From a virus: a stretch of 64,000 nt of DNA. The notes beneath the pieces are model-generated. The model saw only the letters and a list, made by a program, of their open reading frames with translations. It was not told the DNA's origin and did not search any database. A program made the translations under genes and the position numbers. Position 1 is the first letter of the stretch. Each line of letters begins with the position of its first letter. The stretch lies in the IMG/VR virus record IMGVR_UViG_3300020470_005894, positions 29,915 through 93,914 of that record. One strand, written 5' to 3'. Shown here one piece after another: positions 341-22,266 of this stretch.

Positions 341-1084
341 TTAGCTAAGCAATTCAGCGAAAGCTTGGTCGACAGCACTACCATCAGTTGTACCATTATA
401 CTTGGATGATTCGTTTGACACGCTCTCGGCATCACTCTCCGAGAGCAGGAACTCATCAAGCATTGCTTGCACCTGCTCAGGCGTCTTGCGTTCAAAAACC
501 TCATCAAAGTTAGGAATTTGGTCCAAGAAAGTAGCTACCTCGTCTTGACTCTTCATCATTGGAGATGGCTTACGACGCGGTGTGATAGTCGTCTGTGGAA
601 ACTGCGCTCCAGCTGGCTTACCATAATTAATTGTAAGATCTGTCCCTTCAGCAACATCGGTGATATCACCATACTCGGGATTTAGTACTAGATTCAATAG
701 CTCCTTATAGGCAGTCTTTCCAAAGCCCCATAGACGTACGCCCTTCTCTTCTTCTCCACGAACAAGAACTGGAGCGAAGAAGCGTTGACGAGCGGAAAGA
801 TCCTTTGCCATCTTGATGGACTCATCTGTACCATCCTTATAAAGTTGACGGACAAAGTCGTTCAACGGATCATCTTCACCAAAATTTTTCTTTGGACTAA
901 GAAAACCAGCGTTCTTGCCTAGGTTGTAATGAAACCAGTATTCCTTAAATGGATCACCGTCAGGAGTTGGTACGATACGAATCGTCTGCTCTCCGTCCTC
1001 AGGGCGCCAAAAAACACTCTGTCCATTCCCGCGATTTTCCAAGGCATCGCGCTTTGCCTTCATCTTTGCTAAATCAATACCCAT
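341..1084 (-). CDS. Single-stranded DNA-binding protein, T4 gp32-like
   Basis: FWRP...IRIVP, GVRLWGFGK, YGDITD..EGTDL motifs and an acidic C-terminal tail ending DQAFAELLS. SD AAGGAG upstream. Confidence 0.85.
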   Translation of the reverse strand: MGIDLAKMKAKRDALENRGNGQSVFWRPEDGEQTIRIVPTPDGDPFKEYWFHYNLGKNAGFLSPKKNFGEDDPLNDFVRQLYKDGTDESIKMAKDLSARQRFFAPVLVRGEEEKGVRLWGFGKTAYKELLNLVLNPEYGDITDVAEGTDLTINYGKPAGAQFPQTTITPRRKPSPMMKSQDEVATFLDQIPNFDEVFERKTPEQVQAMLDEFLLSESDAESVSNESSKYNGTTDGSAVDQAFAELLS

Positions 1085-1181
1085 TGTATTTTCTCCTTTT
1101 TGCTTTTAGCTATAGTACAGTCGGCCAATCTCCCGACCGTCTGTTAATAGAATAAAAACCGTCTTTAATAAGTAAAATAAT

Positions 1182-2015
1182 TTATTCTACTTTTTGTTCT
1201 TGAATAAAAGACGCATGCTGCACGGTATATACGTAATCGTGCTCATAAGTTGTAGAATAAATGGCAAAGCCAGCGTCGTTCTTATCTGAAGAAGCTTCTT
1301 TTACAAAAGACCTTATCTTATGTAAGATATTCTTATCTTCTTCAAGTGTTTTTTCGTTTATACCATAAAAATAATTTTTTGTACGCGCAAATTTTAAATC
1401 ATAAAAAAGCTTTTCACTGCCAGTTTCGTAGTTTACAACGCCAAAAGTTGAAATTCTAGCAGTTTCTGGCTCCTTAGAGACAGATGTCAATAGCGGCTCA
1501 TTGTTTTCAAAAACATTGATCATATTATACGTGCTTGAAATAACATTGTTGATGTCTTTCCAGTAGTCTTTAATTGATATATTTTCCACTATTTCTTCTA
1601 CTAAATTATTTGAAACCACATACATCTTCTTCAACAACGCAGATCTGGCGTAGTTTTGCAAAATATTAAATGTAACATTACATTTAAGCTTCTCTTCGTT
1701 AGACATTTGACTAATATCAGGCTTTATAAACAAAACGGTTGTAGGTTCGCTTTTAATTTGTTCAAGGAGACGCAGAGCGCACCCACTTATGTTTCCGCTA
1801 CCACACATTATGAGAGTTGTGTCTCCCTTACATTTTGATAAACTTAACTTTTTATAGTTTTTTTCATAATCTTCATGAGAATTTTGATACTTAACCGGCA
1901 GAAATGTATCATACCCCTTGTTTTCTGTGTCAACACAAAAAACCTTATATTGTTCATAATTTTTAAAATTATTAGCTATTTGACAGCCAGCGTTTCCTAA
2001 TCCTATAATATTCAT
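1182..2015 (-). CDS. Divergent tubulin/FtsZ-family protein (PhuZ/TubZ-like)
   Basis: N-terminal IIGLGNAGCQIA loop, VDT, degenerate signature CGSGNISG (canonical GGGTGSG), VVSN and later INNVIS helix consistent with the tubulin GTPase fold. Confidence 0.65.
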   Translation of the reverse strand: MNIIGLGNAGCQIANNFKNYEQYKVFCVDTENKGYDTFLPVKYQNSHEDYEKNYKKLSLSKCKGDTTLIMCGSGNISGCALRLLEQIKSEPTTVLFIKPDISQMSNEEKLKCNVTFNILQNYARSALLKKMYVVSNNLVEEIVENISIKDYWKDINNVISSTYNMINVFENNEPLLTSVSKEPETARISTFGVVNYETGSEKLFYDLKFARTKNYFYGINEKTLEEDKNILHKIRSFVKEASSDKNDAGFAIYSTTYEHDYVYTVQHASFIQEQKVE

Positions 2016-18867: not shown

Positions 18868-19008
18868 TTACTCTTCTTTCTTCTTTTTTGCAGGAGCTTT
18901 TTTAGGAGCAGCTTTTGCTTTTTTAGGAGCAGCCTTGGCAGCTACTGCTTTTTTTTCACGCTCAGCTTTTCTCTCCTCTATCTTTCTGATATCATTTATA
19001 ATTCCCAT
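18868..19008 (-). CDS. Unannotated 46-aa Lys/Ala/Pro-rich basic protein (histone H1-like tail)
   Basis: MGIINDIRKIEERKAEREKKAVAAKAAPKKAKAAPKKAPAKKKKEE; AGGAG SD upstream; terminator downstream. Confidence 0.7.
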   Translation of the reverse strand: MGIINDIRKIEERKAEREKKAVAAKAAPKKAKAAPKKAPAKKKKEE

Positions 19009-19017
19009 GATAATCTC

Positions 19018-19842
19018 CTAGACTTCCCAAGCGACGCGAATGTAATTAACTTGAATATTGTTAGTCGCACCGGTTGTCTCTTGGAAAAGAATTGGCCTTA
19101 AGGAACTATCATCTGGAATATTTGAGCTGATAGTTTTAACTAAAGTCATATCTCCAGGTTCAGTACCAGATGCAGCCTGAGAATGATAAAGTTTAACTAC
19201 CGAACCATCCCAGTGAAGAGCCATATTCAGGACATCATTATCAGCAGCATAAGTCAAGGCAGTCGGAAAAGCTGCAGCGATCGTCCCATCACCATTTTTG
19301 TTGTGTGCATACTGAATTGCATCAACGTTATGCGCAGGCTTGACAAATCCAATTCTGTCGGTGCCGCCGCCGGCAGCTTCAAGGTGAATCGAGTCGACGG
19401 TAATAGCATTCTCCGTAACACCGAAAAAGAATTCAGCGTCGTCATGATTTGCGACCTTAATAGAAGCTTCCATCCACCATCTTTTTGTGCTTGATGCGCA
19501 GCTAATCGGCGCAGCATCAAGGCCGATTGCTGTTTGATTTCCTGCAGAGTTGCCACCAGCTAGCTGAATAGAGCCATCTGTAAAATCACTATCACTATTA
19601 ATAGCAGTGACCGCGCCAGAGTTGGCATCGTCAAAAAGCCAGATACCAGTTGTTGCGTTATCAGCAACCGGAAGCAAATCAACCACGCCGCCTGCGTGCA
19701 TTTGTCCCATACATGCGACTTTTAAATTACGGCGCAAGCCAGGCACCATCGGAGGGCGGACATACCCCCACTCATCGTTTTTACTACGAGGTACTTCCAT
19801 AAGGCTATCAAGCCTCCTACGTCCTAATCTTCGACTTCCCAT
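19018..19842 (-). CDS. Hypothetical virion protein (basic N-terminus, beta-rich body; possible capsid decoration)
   Basis: Starts MGSRRLGRRRL; strong SD AAGGAG; between capsid and neck genes; preceded by the late-type motif. Confidence 0.5.
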   Translation of the reverse strand: MGSRRLGRRRLDSLMEVPRSKNDEWGYVRPPMVPGLRRNLKVACMGQMHAGGVVDLLPVADNATTGIWLFDDANSGAVTAINSDSDFTDGSIQLAGGNSAGNQTAIGLDAAPISCASSTKRWWMEASIKVANHDDAEFFFGVTENAITVDSIHLEAAGGGTDRIGFVKPAHNVDAIQYAHNKNGDGTIAAAFPTALTYAADNDVLNMALHWDGSVVKLYHSQAASGTEPGDMTLVKTISSNIPDDSSLRPILFQETTGATNNIQVNYIRVAWEV

Positions 19843-19861
19843 TTTTTGTTTCTCCTTTTTT

Positions 19862-19960
19862 AAGTTATCGATAACTTGATTTTAATCACGAAACATAGCC
19901 AGCCACCTCGGCTATGAATCTTCAAGGGTCAGTGGCCCCGACCCGGGAGAATAATTTCAA
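19862..19960 (-). ncRNA. Candidate structured RNA leader with two hairpins and complementary loops
   Basis: Minus strand GGGUCG-GGGCCAC-UGACCC and CAUAGCCG-AGGUGGC-UGGCUAUG; loop segments GCCAC and GUGGC are complementary; perfect palindrome AAGTTATCGATAACTT just before the SD. Confidence 0.45.
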
Positions 19961-20062
19961 GTTGTATTATAAATAGTTGATTTAAAAGTCAAAATCTCAA
20001 AAATTAGCAGCGATATTTTTTTGAGTATTCTGATTTTTTAAAGGTTAAAAGTTTTGTGACTT

Positions 20063-20266
20063 TTATTCAGACTCTTCCTCTTCAACTGTCTCCTCTGAAT
20101 CTGATACTTCTTCAGATGATTCTGGGTTAAGGGCAGATAACAAGCCAATTGCTTCTGCTAATAAACCAGCTTCTTCAAGACTAAAAGCTCCTCTTTTCTG
20201 AGCTAGCTGCGCAGCTTGAACCAATAAATCGACAGCTTGTCCCGGTGTTTCAACTCTTTGTGACAT
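20063..20266 (-). CDS. Small acidic hypothetical protein
   Basis: 67 aa, SD AAGGAG, LVQAAQLAQKRGAFSLEEA core and acidic tail. Confidence 0.7.
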   Translation of the reverse strand: MSQRVETPGQAVDLLVQAAQLAQKRGAFSLEEAGLLAEAIGLLSALNPESSEEVSDSEETVEEEESE

Positions 20267-20297
20267 TTTATTCTCCTTCTAATATGTCGGTGTCACC

Positions 20298-20326
20298 ATT
20301 ATATAGGCATAAGATATTAATGTTAA
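20298..20326 (-). promoter_or_regulatory. Sigma70-type promoter TTAACA-N17-TATAAT
   Basis: Minus strand TTAACA ttaatatcttatgccta TATAAT, upstream of the 20266 start. Confidence 0.55.
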
Positions 20327-20335
20327 ATTTTTTTT

Positions 20336-20371
20336 AAAAAAAACCCCGCCAAGGAAAACCCAAGGCGGGGC
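20336..20371 (-). terminator. Rho-independent terminator after the major capsid gene
   Basis: Minus strand GCCCCGCCTTGG-gtttt-CCTTGGCGGGG followed by a T tract. Confidence 0.85.
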
Positions 20372-20397: not shown

Positions 20398-22266
20398 TTA
20401 GCTAGAGCCTTCCTCACCGAGGAGGCCGCGGACAACAACAAGACCATACATATCAGGTCGGACCATCTTCTTGGCGTATCGAGTCATGACTCCCTTACGG
20501 GGCACGAAATCCTCGGTACCGAAGATCGTCGGAGTGACCTGGAGAGGCACATATGGAGCGTAAACATAGCCACTTTCAAGGAAGCTTCCGCCGCGTCGTC
20601 CAACGAGAACGAGATTACGGGGGAAGTAGGGATCGACATATACGTCCCACTTCTTGGAAAGTGAACCAACGTTGACAGCGCCAACAGAGCCCTTGTCAGA
20701 ATCATGAGTAATGCTCGCACGGAAACCAGCAGTAAACTCAAGGATATTAGCAACTTCAGGTGACGTCACCAAGAAGTTAGCTCCACCGCGAAGAGTTTTT
20801 CTGTGAATCTGAGCTGAAACATCATTAATGGTCTCAACAAGAGTCTCATACCACTCGCTAACCGTACCGGTGAAGTCCGGAGCAGCGGCAGCTGCACCAA
20901 GCTCGGAACCAGTGTTACGGCTAACAAACAAACCAGGCGAACGTGACCAGTAGAAAGTACTAGCAGTGGCGCCTTCGATGAGGTCCTTAACAATCTCACG
21001 ATCGATCTCAAGAGCAATCTGCTCGGAGAGAATCTGAGTAAGCTCAACCTCGGCGTCGAGGTTGTGGTAAGCGTTGAGGTCCTGACCAAGTTCAGGGGTC
21101 CACTTAGCTTTGAGCTTCTTCGTCATCGCGGTAACAGCAATGCTGTCGACCTTGATGTCAATCTCAGGAATCTCATCTTTTGCAGCAGCTGAAGCGCGAT
21201 TTGTATCCACTCCGGCAGTTGCACCAGCTTCTTCAAGGCCCCAGTTATCAGTTCCCTTAATCGCGCCGAGAGCATCAGCAGTCGTAAATGCGTCGATCAT
21301 TGGGTAGGTCAAAAGTAGAGCTGCCGCGTCGATGTCGCCGGCAGTAAGAGCTGAACCCTGCACGTAGAAAGTAATACCGCAGTTGTTTTTACCATGGTAA
21401 AGATTCTCTAAAGTCACACCATTGGAGGCCTTTGTGCCCAGGTGGGTTAACCTACGAAGAATCTTTGCTCCGGTACCAGGAACAGGCGTACCATCAGCCT
21501 CAGTAAGATTGAAAGCACCCATGTTTCTGAAGTTCATTTTAGCAGCCTCAGCAGCAGTAACATGAACAACAACTTCACAAATTTCATCAGTAGCCGTGCC
21601 TCCTAGGACATCGGGGTCATGACGAATAGCGTTTTTCTGTGCCTCGGTCAAGTTCTGAACCTGAACCTCAGAGCCTGCAAACGCCGTAAAGCTAGTGTGC
21701 GTAGAGCTGAAAGCAGGCGCAGTAGCAATTGTCGCGAAGGTTGTACGAGCACTAGAATCAGCAGCAAGCGCAAGAGCACCAGTCACGTGTGAGTAAGCGT
21801 TGGAAAGGTCATAGAAACCGCCGCCTTCTTCAGTGATGTCGGAAACACCACCAGTCAGCTGGCTACCAACAACTCCGCCACCATATAGCGAGTCGCTCTG
21901 ATCAATACCGAGACGAGCTGCGGTTTGGTCACTGTACTGGAAATCCAGGAAGAAAATGAGACCGGACGGCAAGCTCATTGGCTGAACCGACACGAGATCA
22001 TTTGCAAGTAGTCCACCGAATACACGACGGACAATCGGGAACGCTACGGAAGCGAATCCCTCAACATCACCAGCTGCCATAGATGAAGCCTCTTTAAGAA
22101 GCTGAGCAGCCTGATTTTCTAATAGACGGGCCATGCCCTGTCTTGAGCTATCGTCTTCAAGACCCTCAAGAAGTCCGGTGCGTTCCCACTTCTCTAATAG
22201 AGCAGCACCTTCTCTCTGGAGGCTTCTTTGTGCGATGCCTTCAGTTAGCTTTTTTAATACAGACAT
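20398..22266 (-). CDS. Major capsid protein (T4 gp23-like)
   Basis: LLEKW..TGLLEG, FPIVRRVF, VSVQPMSLPSGLIFFLDF, KLKAKWTPELGQDLNAYH.LDAEVELT, GYVYAPYVPL, GVMTRYA. Confidence 0.97.
   Translation of the reverse strand: MSVLKKLTEGIAQRSLQREGAALLEKWERTGLLEGLEDDSSRQGMARLLENQAAQLLKEASSMAAGDVEGFASVAFPIVRRVFGGLLANDLVSVQPMSLPSGLIFFLDFQYSDQTAARLGIDQSDSLYGGGVVGSQLTGGVSDITEEGGGFYDLSNAYSHVTGALALAADSSARTTFATIATAPAFSSTHTSFTAFAGSEVQVQNLTEAQKNAIRHDPDVLGGTATDEICEVVVHVTAAEAAKMNFRNMGAFNLTEADGTPVPGTGAKILRRLTHLGTKASNGVTLENLYHGKNNCGITFYVQGSALTAGDIDAAALLLTYPMIDAFTTADALGAIKGTDNWGLEEAGATAGVDTNRASAAAKDEIPEIDIKVDSIAVTAMTKKLKAKWTPELGQDLNAYHNLDAEVELTQILSEQIALEIDREIVKDLIEGATASTFYWSRSPGLFVSRNTGSELGAAAAAPDFTGTVSEWYETLVETINDVSAQIHRKTLRGGANFLVTSPEVANILEFTAGFRASITHDSDKGSVGAVNVGSLSKKWDVYVDPYFPRNLVLVGRRGGSFLESGYVYAPYVPLQVTPTIFGTEDFVPRKGVMTRYAKKMVRPDMYGLVVVRGLLGEEGSS

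Follow-up and report, generated by a model that had tools for sequence, protein, structure and literature searches.

A conserved 5′ leader with complementary hairpin loops precedes putative capsid surface protein genes of marine far-T4 myoviruses and may gate their translation

To our knowledge, structured regulatory RNAs are rare before phage structural genes, and few natural cis-regulatory RNAs possess a loop-loop helix that is backed by covariation. The purine riboswitch (RF00167), with the translational adenine riboswitch 'add' as an example, is a 5′ leader of purine genes in which a P1-P2-P3 junction with docked 7-nucleotide (nt) loops is combined with access to the Shine-Dalgarno sequence (SD) via alternative pairing. 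The phi29 pRNA (RF00044), a non-coding transcript of its own, forms a ring on the portal through loop pairing between molecules. In phage T4, the SD of the late genes soc, e and I-TevI is hidden in a hairpin that contains the late promoter, and late transcripts escape. Autogenous operators are represented by the T4 gp32, gp43 and RegA targets, by ribosomal-protein leaders and by P22 scaffolding; ribosomal proteins and P22 scaffolding protein feed back on their own synthesis. Here, a conserved, cis-acting 5′ leader of ~120 nt is described on a predicted late mRNA of an uncultured clade of marine T4-like ('far-T4') myoviruses. It was found in a stretch of 64 kb (hereafter the window), which is part of a 94-kb virus fragment from IMG/VR (IMGVR_UViG_3300020470_005894), between the major capsid protein gene and a gene for a protein of 274 amino acids (aa), hereafter gene X. 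The leader is a real, abundant and uncatalogued structured RNA, with conservation and covariation far beyond chance.

Covariation of two hairpins and their loops

All leader features were read on the minus strand of the window (Table 1). The two hairpins with 7-nt, G.U-closed loops and complementary GCCAC/GUGGC segments, which the original prediction had described, were found with all coordinates correct, and its perfect 16-nt palindrome (AAGUUAUCGAUAACUU, 19877-19862) was confirmed. The outer UGAAA/UUUCG helix that had been suggested as junction closer amounts to at most a 2-3-base-pair (bp) extension of hairpin B (P3), which has a 2-bp extension GA:UC within 19890-19920. Instead, the closing helices are AACUUGA:UCAAGUU (P1) and a pairing between an anti-Shine-Dalgarno sequence (anti-SD) and the SD. 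As had also been noticed, the leader is unusually long, since 134 nt lie between the motif CTATTTA (19976-19970) and the start codon, compared with 25-37 nt at the five other minus-strand CTATTTA sites of the window (48592, 39601, 23508, 12616 and 10929). With -36.4 kcal/mol, the minimum free energy (MFE) fold of the window's leader was more stable than folds of shuffled sequences (-24.6 ± 3.9 kcal/mol; z = -3.0).

Protein homologues of gene X led to 61 viral loci, and 7 close loci among them carry the same leader with visible compensating changes. DNA patterns were then run on viral and metagenome collections, and the resulting locus totals are lower bounds. The first, loose pattern gave mainly chance matches, which were sorted by descriptor and then by covariance model. 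The leader was found in at least 253 marine viral or metagenomic loci (~180 unique sequences), and many of the metagenome contigs came from marine surveys such as TARA. Its position is constant in these loci, between the capsid-gene terminator and the next gene. The covariance model built for the leader, R1, gave 97 matches in 97 loci, one copy each, and a single copy in the window. The loop sequences and CUCC were fixed in some of the search patterns, so that their invariance there is partly a product of searching. A second sample, unselected on the loops, was collected with a pattern of the downstream palindrome, SD and start codon, plus the protein-derived loci.

Both stems showed compensation. 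In 97 non-redundant leaders, P2 was 95.5% paired with three pairs changed on both sides (94-96% and 3-4 pairs across alignments), while P3 was 91% paired with five such pairs (91-92% and 5-6 pairs across alignments), one of which reads UA in 32, AU in 30, CG in 8 and GC in 8 leaders. The observed percentage paired, double-change cells, extra pair types and covariation score were not matched by any shuffle; the exception was the number of pairs with a double change, equalled in 52 of 500 shuffles for alignment A3 and in 97 of 500 for alignment A4. When the partner strand was slid by 1-3 columns, pairing dropped from 90% to 40-53%.

The loops varied in concert. The loop-unselected sample contained GCCAC/GUGGC 136 times, GCGGC/GCCGC, with the strands swapped, 13 times and GCCGC/GCGGC twice; one further locus (L005) has the loop pair GCCCC/GGGGC. 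All five kissing pairs were 100% paired in the model-based alignment A5 of 48 distinct sequences unselected on the loops, and two of the five changed on both sides (C-G 35/G-C 13 and A-U 33/G-C 14/C-G 1). The loop-based set, in which one position had been left free on both sides, was complementary there in 158 of 158 genuine instances. Since the loop variants occur with all three protein families encoded downstream, they are not the accident of one clade. Of the unpaired bases in the junction, GAA (linking P2 to P3) and UG (following P3) were conserved to at least 90%. RNAalifold returned P1, P2 and P3 together from A5, an outcome favoured by the fitting of this alignment to the proposed structure. 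The architecture predicted from this comparative analysis is a three-way junction that is closed by P1 and in which a G+C-rich helix of 5 bp, formed between the loops, ties P2 to P3. Lack of conservation or covariation in relatives would have counted against the original prediction; stems and loop-loop pairs were found to covary.

No family of Rfam 15 accounts for the leader. In the 64-kb window, Rfam 15 gave no match at gathering scores, and for 19700-20150 with E values up to 10 it gave only chance-level matches, none on the hairpin pair; against Rfam 15, the claim of novelty is thus upheld, and a literature search found no earlier description of the leader. Neither the leader region nor the 274-aa protein was matched by blastn or tblastn in phage records, PHROGs and Pfam held no family for this protein, and a single-protein scan of viral contigs with it gave no match. 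With R1, no leader was found upstream of distant homologues, nor, even with filters off, in the closest cultured phages, immuto and Mel-JY01. The DNA pattern gave four matches in prokaryote genomes, none of which was the leader by covariance model, and hence no host clue and no sign of a prophage.

Some smaller observations concern the same element. In a 141-kb IMG/VR contig (L423:8008-8083), the palindrome GTTATTGCAATAAC is followed by AAGGAGAAAATTATG and the two hairpins are absent (model E = 0.21); this contig may show the leader in a reduced or an ancestral state. A weak covariance-model match at 1082-1182 (minus strand) of the window (25 bits, E = 0.24) probably reflects only the promoter-like motif and the SD. 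A tandem G.A may form between 19923-19922 and 19887-19886. A hammerhead or other ribozyme and a kink-turn were rejected, as core motifs were absent or the geometry was unsuitable, and a local GAU...AUC hairpin of the window's MFE fold was not conserved in the L007/L190 group. In the window, 19914-19900 was called by a terminator scan; in most relatives, however, P3 is followed by AAUCAUUG and not by a U-run, and an intrinsic terminator or attenuator was rejected on this ground.

Predicted alternative pairings around the Shine-Dalgarno sequence

The strand joining P1 and P2 carries the anti-SD, which the original prediction had missed. It offers 6-10 contiguous nt complementary to the SD in 142 of 144 leaders unselected on the anti-SD. 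The mean complementary run was 7.9 nt, compared with 5.6 nt after shuffling of the region and 3.2 nt for another 20-nt window of the same leader. The flank covaries as well: G follows GGAG in 10 of 15 leaders in which C precedes CUCC, and in 18 of 143 with U before CUCC. In the full-length MFE fold, CUCC was paired with GGAG in 124 of 177 unique leaders, and in the window the UUCUCC:GGAGAA helix closes the whole element. These counts were anchor-based; column-based counts of P4 and of anti-SD:SD pairing in A4 were uninformative, because the window's palindrome falls 2 nt short of the majority form and the register of the anti-SD shifts by 1-2 nt, so that columns are misaligned. With an anti-SD that is both conserved and covarying, the leader is predicted to sequester its SD, and the cis-regulatory part of the original prediction is strengthened. 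The Arg codons 9-10 of gene X (AGG AGG, 19813-19818) form an internal SD-like AGGAGG, and in the MFE fold of a longer transcript this sequence, not the true SD, pairs with the anti-SD.

P1 was ~90% paired, and most of its variation was one-sided, from U-A to U.G. Compensation was seen by eye in the subfamilies L190 (UUGAAU/AUUCAG), L210 (UUUCAA/UUGAGG) and L007 (CCUAAGAAAU/AUUUCUUGG). Free of any alignment, the P1 duplex had a mean free energy of -7.8 kcal/mol, compared with -3.9 kcal/mol for shuffled 5′ segments; the margin of a leader over shuffles of itself exceeded 2 kcal/mol in 93% of 168 cases. Since the 3′ strand of P1 and the 5′ half of the palindromic hairpin P4 share GUUA, P1 and P4 are mutually exclusive; like P1 itself, this exclusion was absent from the original prediction. 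Of 158 leaders, 154 have at the P4 site a palindrome of 12 nt or more that is free of mismatches, the centre included. It occurs in at least five versions (TTATTGCAATAA, GTTATCGATAAC, GGTTACGTAACC, GGTTAACGTTAACC and TATTATATAATA). Since an ordinary RNA hairpin could form without self-complementarity in its loop, the perfect centre of P4 is more than a hairpin calls for.

Perfect palindromes of 12-16 bp between promoter and gene might also be operators for a dimeric DNA-binding protein, the RNA folds being secondary. The GTTA half-site slides relative to the centre, with a spacing of 2, 4 or 6 bp depending on the version, which is unlike one dimeric binding geometry. Moreover, 60 leaders have G..T (G.U in RNA) as their outermost pair, and the covariation of P2, P3 and the loops would be left unexplained. 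A function at the DNA level was judged the least probable of all explanations weighed here.

The second half of the original prediction, a self-assembling RNA in the manner of phi29 pRNA, would have the loops pair between molecules and the palindrome dimerise, for a role in capsid assembly or in the virion. Covariation cannot separate within-molecule from between-molecule loop pairing and is compatible with the latter; the palindrome that is perfect through its centre in several versions and the location within the capsid gene module would fit as well. However, the element runs directly into SD and open reading frame (ORF), with no conserved terminator between them (the call at 19914-19900 rests on a U-run that most relatives lack), and it carries an anti-SD, for which reasons a self-assembling virion RNA is disfavoured. 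G.U pairs are tolerated in P4, and the Rfam model of pRNA gave no match. This part of the prediction is thus very unlikely to hold.

Folding predictions, made with nearest-neighbour energies and no kissing term, suggest two competing states. For the window, energies of -36.2 kcal/mol for the P1 junction and of -37.8 kcal/mol for the anti-SD:SD state were calculated, and the first 92 nt of its leader alone fold into the P1 junction. When leaders were truncated before the SD, P1 formed in 175 of 177 unique leaders. When the anti-SD was blocked, P1 was present in 159 of the 177 leaders and GGAG was fully unpaired in 105, at a mean cost of 4.9 kcal/mol. On these models, the leader is probably a cis-acting translational gate that hides the SD and alternates between the P1 junction and a fold with P4 and the anti-SD:SD helix; the probability of this reading is put at about 60%. 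From the truncation and anti-SD-blocking folds we infer an order of events: nascent RNA would first fold into the P1 junction with its SD free, and would then relax into the more stable end state, in which P4 and the anti-SD:SD helix block the ribosome.

Such a path from the P1 fold to a stabler SD-blocked fold could also serve as a timer in an effector-free, constitutive leader. A leader of this kind would shield the 5′ end of a plentiful late mRNA, give translation a rate that is fixed or declines slowly, or react to temperature. Bacterial mRNAs are stabilised when their 5′ end is paired, and in P1 the nucleotides predicted to start the transcript would be paired. However, a simple 5′ hairpin would be sufficient for stability, and covarying kissing loops, an anti-SD and a strictly kept palindrome exceed that need. 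In addition, leaders of 20-40 nt suffice at the equivalent position in the nearest cultured relatives. A constitutive leader is therefore considered unlikely, and a gate that responds to a trigger is preferred.

The downstream genes and their shared N-terminal arm

The gene order is capsid gene, terminator, promoter-like motif, leader, gene X and homologues of the 430-aa and 164-aa proteins of the window. A homologue of the capsid gene ends ~100 nt before the anti-SD in 233 of the 253 loci, and the 274-aa protein of the window found a tblastn match in only 25 of them. The ORFs downstream of the leader cluster into three unrelated families: F1 has 131 unique members of ~195 aa, F2 has 35 members of ~273 aa, with the window's protein among them, and F3 has 17 members of 145-267 aa; four full-length singletons and two eight-residue ORFs fall outside. 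A profile comparison of F1 with F2 aligned only the first ~52 columns (95.5% probability), and the three bodies have in common only their first ~11-14 residues, MG-x-RR-x-G-x-(K/R)-R-L. An ORF with this basic arm follows each of the leaders found (253 of 253). Since Gly7 is encoded by all four of its codons, and Arg10 and Leu11 by six each, selection acts on the arm peptide and not on the RNA.

The AlphaFold2 model of the window's F2 protein (predicted local distance difference test (pLDDT) score of 86) shows a ConA-like lectin beta-sandwich behind a low-confidence N-terminal arm; its Foldseek matches were legume and ERGIC-53 lectins and SO2946-like phage proteins. The F1 model (pLDDT of 92) is a jelly-roll with the GP4 capsid chain (Z 7.3), Pam1 (Z 7.0) and the KHP40 cement protein (Z 6.5) as best matches. 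These scores are modest, and the matches suggest a coherent set of phage capsid cement or decoration jelly-rolls. Lectin-domain homologues in loci L008-L016 have a short MSQTK start, and the DNA upstream of them is devoid of the leader. Two others (P0008 and P0015) possess the tail-fibre-like N-terminus KGYF.TGD.PT...F.DL.DS in place of the basic arm; since this N-terminus is of the tail-fibre type, the ConA-like domain appears to be mounted on different virion anchors. Gene X may encode a swappable capsid surface (decoration or cement) protein that is anchored by the conserved arm. A prohead-protease site of the type LxE after the arm was rejected, as SLME of the window is not conserved among homologues. 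Directly after gene X lies a Lys/Ala/Pro-rich ORF of 46 aa (18868-19008, minus strand); tblastn found no match to it in the 253 related loci, a search limited by its low complexity, and it was discarded as a conserved partner of the leader.

If the leader switches, one possible trigger is a small molecule or ion: the three-way junction with docked loops would be an aptamer, and binding of the ligand would draw the anti-SD into the junction, leaving the SD free. The P1-P2-P3 architecture with pairing 7-nt loops and the conserved junction bases would fit a riboswitch, as would the nearly equal energies of the window's alternative folds; across the family, the mean cost of an anti-SD block was 4.9 kcal/mol. 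However, the leader occupies a single gene position, before a virion structural gene without a metabolic link, and three unrelated families of gene bodies follow it. No Rfam riboswitch model matches, and, loops aside, the sequence is most strongly conserved in P4, beyond the putative aptamer. A riboswitch is thus less likely again than a constitutive leader.

For the translational gate, a protein is the leading guess as trigger between the conformers; it is favoured because of the one gene position, the three unrelated bodies that share only a basic arm, and the conserved sequence of P4. The favoured candidate is the gene's own product, acting via the conserved N-terminal arm. Feedback of this kind would couple synthesis of the decoration or cement protein to free capsid binding sites. 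It is possible, though on balance doubtful, that the leader is an assembly-sensing riboregulator of this type: the arm would anchor interchangeable decoration or cement proteins on the capsid and, when free capsid sites run out, would bind its own leader, perhaps at P4, and tip the junction into the SD-blocked fold. This would be Nomura-type autogenous control on a portable leader-plus-arm cassette.

Several points weigh against the gate and against its proposed trigger. Regulation and transcript start are predictions from sequence and folds. A pseudoknot that contains both P1 and the anti-SD:SD helix is possible and would leave no switch, and P1 not only changes mainly on one side, from U-A to U.G, but is also weak in leaders of the L019/L063 group. 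The sets free of search bias are smaller and consist mostly of one palindrome subtype, and elsewhere the invariance of CUCC and loops is in part search-made. Leader and arm may co-occur only as one conserved recombination flank, so that their association is not independent evidence of binding. A default-off leader would also be odd for a protein that is probably needed in hundreds of copies. In metatranscriptomes, one contig of 151 nt, from two runs of one sample, spans the leader of a close variant from ~19974 through SD and AUG, and where it differs from the window (C-G to U-A, U-A to U.G and G-C to G.U), the stems are preserved. It lends weak support to co-transcription of the hairpins with the ORF; being of read length, it says nothing on the transcript start. 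This contig is the sole RNA evidence, and DNA carry-over is possible.

Turning to the neighbouring genes, the capsid protein of the fragment is nearest to those of the 'far-T4' myoviruses Flavobacterium phage immuto, Microcystis phage Mel-JY01 and Rhodothermus phage RM378, with 41-48% identity over ~60% of its length. It is long (622 aa; 20398-22266, minus strand), and since its relatives match in two pieces over that ~60% only, the comparison suggests that it carries a large inserted domain. The capsid-gene terminator was read by eye, and an equivalent terminator lies upstream of the leader in 7 of 7 protein-derived relatives; it is absent from the list of the terminator scan, probably because its loop exceeds the limit of the scan. 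A TATTTAT(A) motif also follows the capsid-gene terminator in immuto and Mel-JY01. Between terminator and leader, the window has an acidic ORF of 67 aa (20063-20326, minus strand) with a near-consensus sigma-70-type promoter (TTAACA-17-TATAAT, 11 of 12 matches, 20326-20298). Most relatives have no gene at this position, and in the four loci that possess a homologue it lies after gene X, which suggests a small mobile gene. In Mel-JY01 (L470:143-370), a gene annotated as ribosomal protein S21 lies a few genes upstream of the capsid gene.

Table 1. Positions of the leader elements and adjacent genes in the 64-kb window
Feature	Position	Strand	Remarks
Major capsid protein gene (gp23-like), upstream neighbour	20398..22266	-	PHROG 138, E = 4e-72
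Capsid-gene terminator, CCCCGCC...GGCGGGG stem, then U-run	20336..20370	-	read by eye
Late-promoter-like motif CTATTTA (CTAnTTA across the family)	19970..19976	-	C6, T7, A8, T11 and A12 invariant in alignment
P1 5′ strand AACUUGA, at or near the predicted transcript 5′ end	19957..19963	-	pairs with 19879-19873
Anti-SD UUCUCC, strand joining P1 and P2	19946..19951	-	pairs with GGAGAA in the MFE fold
Hairpin P2 (hairpin A), GGGUCG[GGGCCAC]UGACCC, loop A GGGCCAC	19926..19944	-	7-nt loop, G.U-closed
Loop A half of the kissing helix, GCCAC	19932..19936	-	complementary to 19902-19906
Hairpin P3 (hairpin B), CAUAGCCG[AGGUGGC]UGGCUAUG, core 19916-19894, loop B AGGUGGC	19890..19920	-	7-nt loop, G.U-closed
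Loop B half of the kissing helix, GUGGC	19902..19906	-	complementary to 19932-19936
P1 3′ strand UCAAGUU (19879-19873), overlapping palindromic hairpin P4 (19877-19862)	19862..19879	-	
SD region AGGAGAA	19850..19856	-	SD GGAG 19855-19852; AUG 19842-19840
Gene X, 274-aa protein with basic arm MGSRRLGRRRL and predicted ConA-like lectin beta-sandwich	19018..19842	-	ORF

Comparison with known systems

The leader is abundant in the ocean, and together with the arm of 11-14 residues it travels as a cassette before unrelated bodies, which points to a portable unit that controls and anchors capsid surface proteins. If the trigger were the protein's own arm, this would be a new case of assembly-coupled translational feedback in viruses; if it were a metabolite, it would be a new riboswitch class that sets virion composition. 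Either way, the leader is a candidate for a new Rfam family, a structural target and a compact natural kissing-loop switch for RNA engineering. The kind of element that is predicted here is known, namely an SD-hiding leader on a riboswitch-like three-way junction. New are the family itself, the covarying kissing loops, the predicted competition of P1 with P4 and the cassette link to an arm on interchangeable, putative capsid proteins.

Compared with the purine riboswitch, the leader is alike in its P1-P2-P3 junction, its 7-nt loops that would dock, its position as a 5′ leader and the predicted access to the SD via alternative pairing. The loops of the riboswitch dock by base quadruples, whereas those of the leader would do so by five contiguous Watson-Crick pairs. 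The RF00167 model gave no match, there is no sequence similarity, and the anti-SD of the leader is in the 5′ strand of the junction. While the riboswitch belongs to purine genes, a virion-module gene always follows the leader.

With autogenous operators, the leader has in common that a gene-specific structured leader precedes the gene of a putative assembly protein. The product of gene X has a basic segment, a putative RNA binder, and feedback from unassembled protein is plausible. The association with one kind of gene is exclusive, as in these operators, and where a lectin homologue starts differently (L008-L016) the leader is missing; this association may stem from common descent of the flank. 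In contrast to these operators, none of which it matches in architecture, the putative binding segment is an arm on unrelated bodies.

As a phage RNA with two complementary loops that is encoded near head genes, the leader resembles phi29 pRNA. In contrast to this separate non-coding RNA, it is part of an mRNA with anti-SD and SD. It is also similar to the hairpins of T4 soc, e and I-TevI, in that the SD of a T4-type late gene would be hidden in RNA structure. Whereas the T4 hairpins enclose the late promoter, the anti-SD of the leader lies downstream of the late-type promoter and would thus be within the late transcript.

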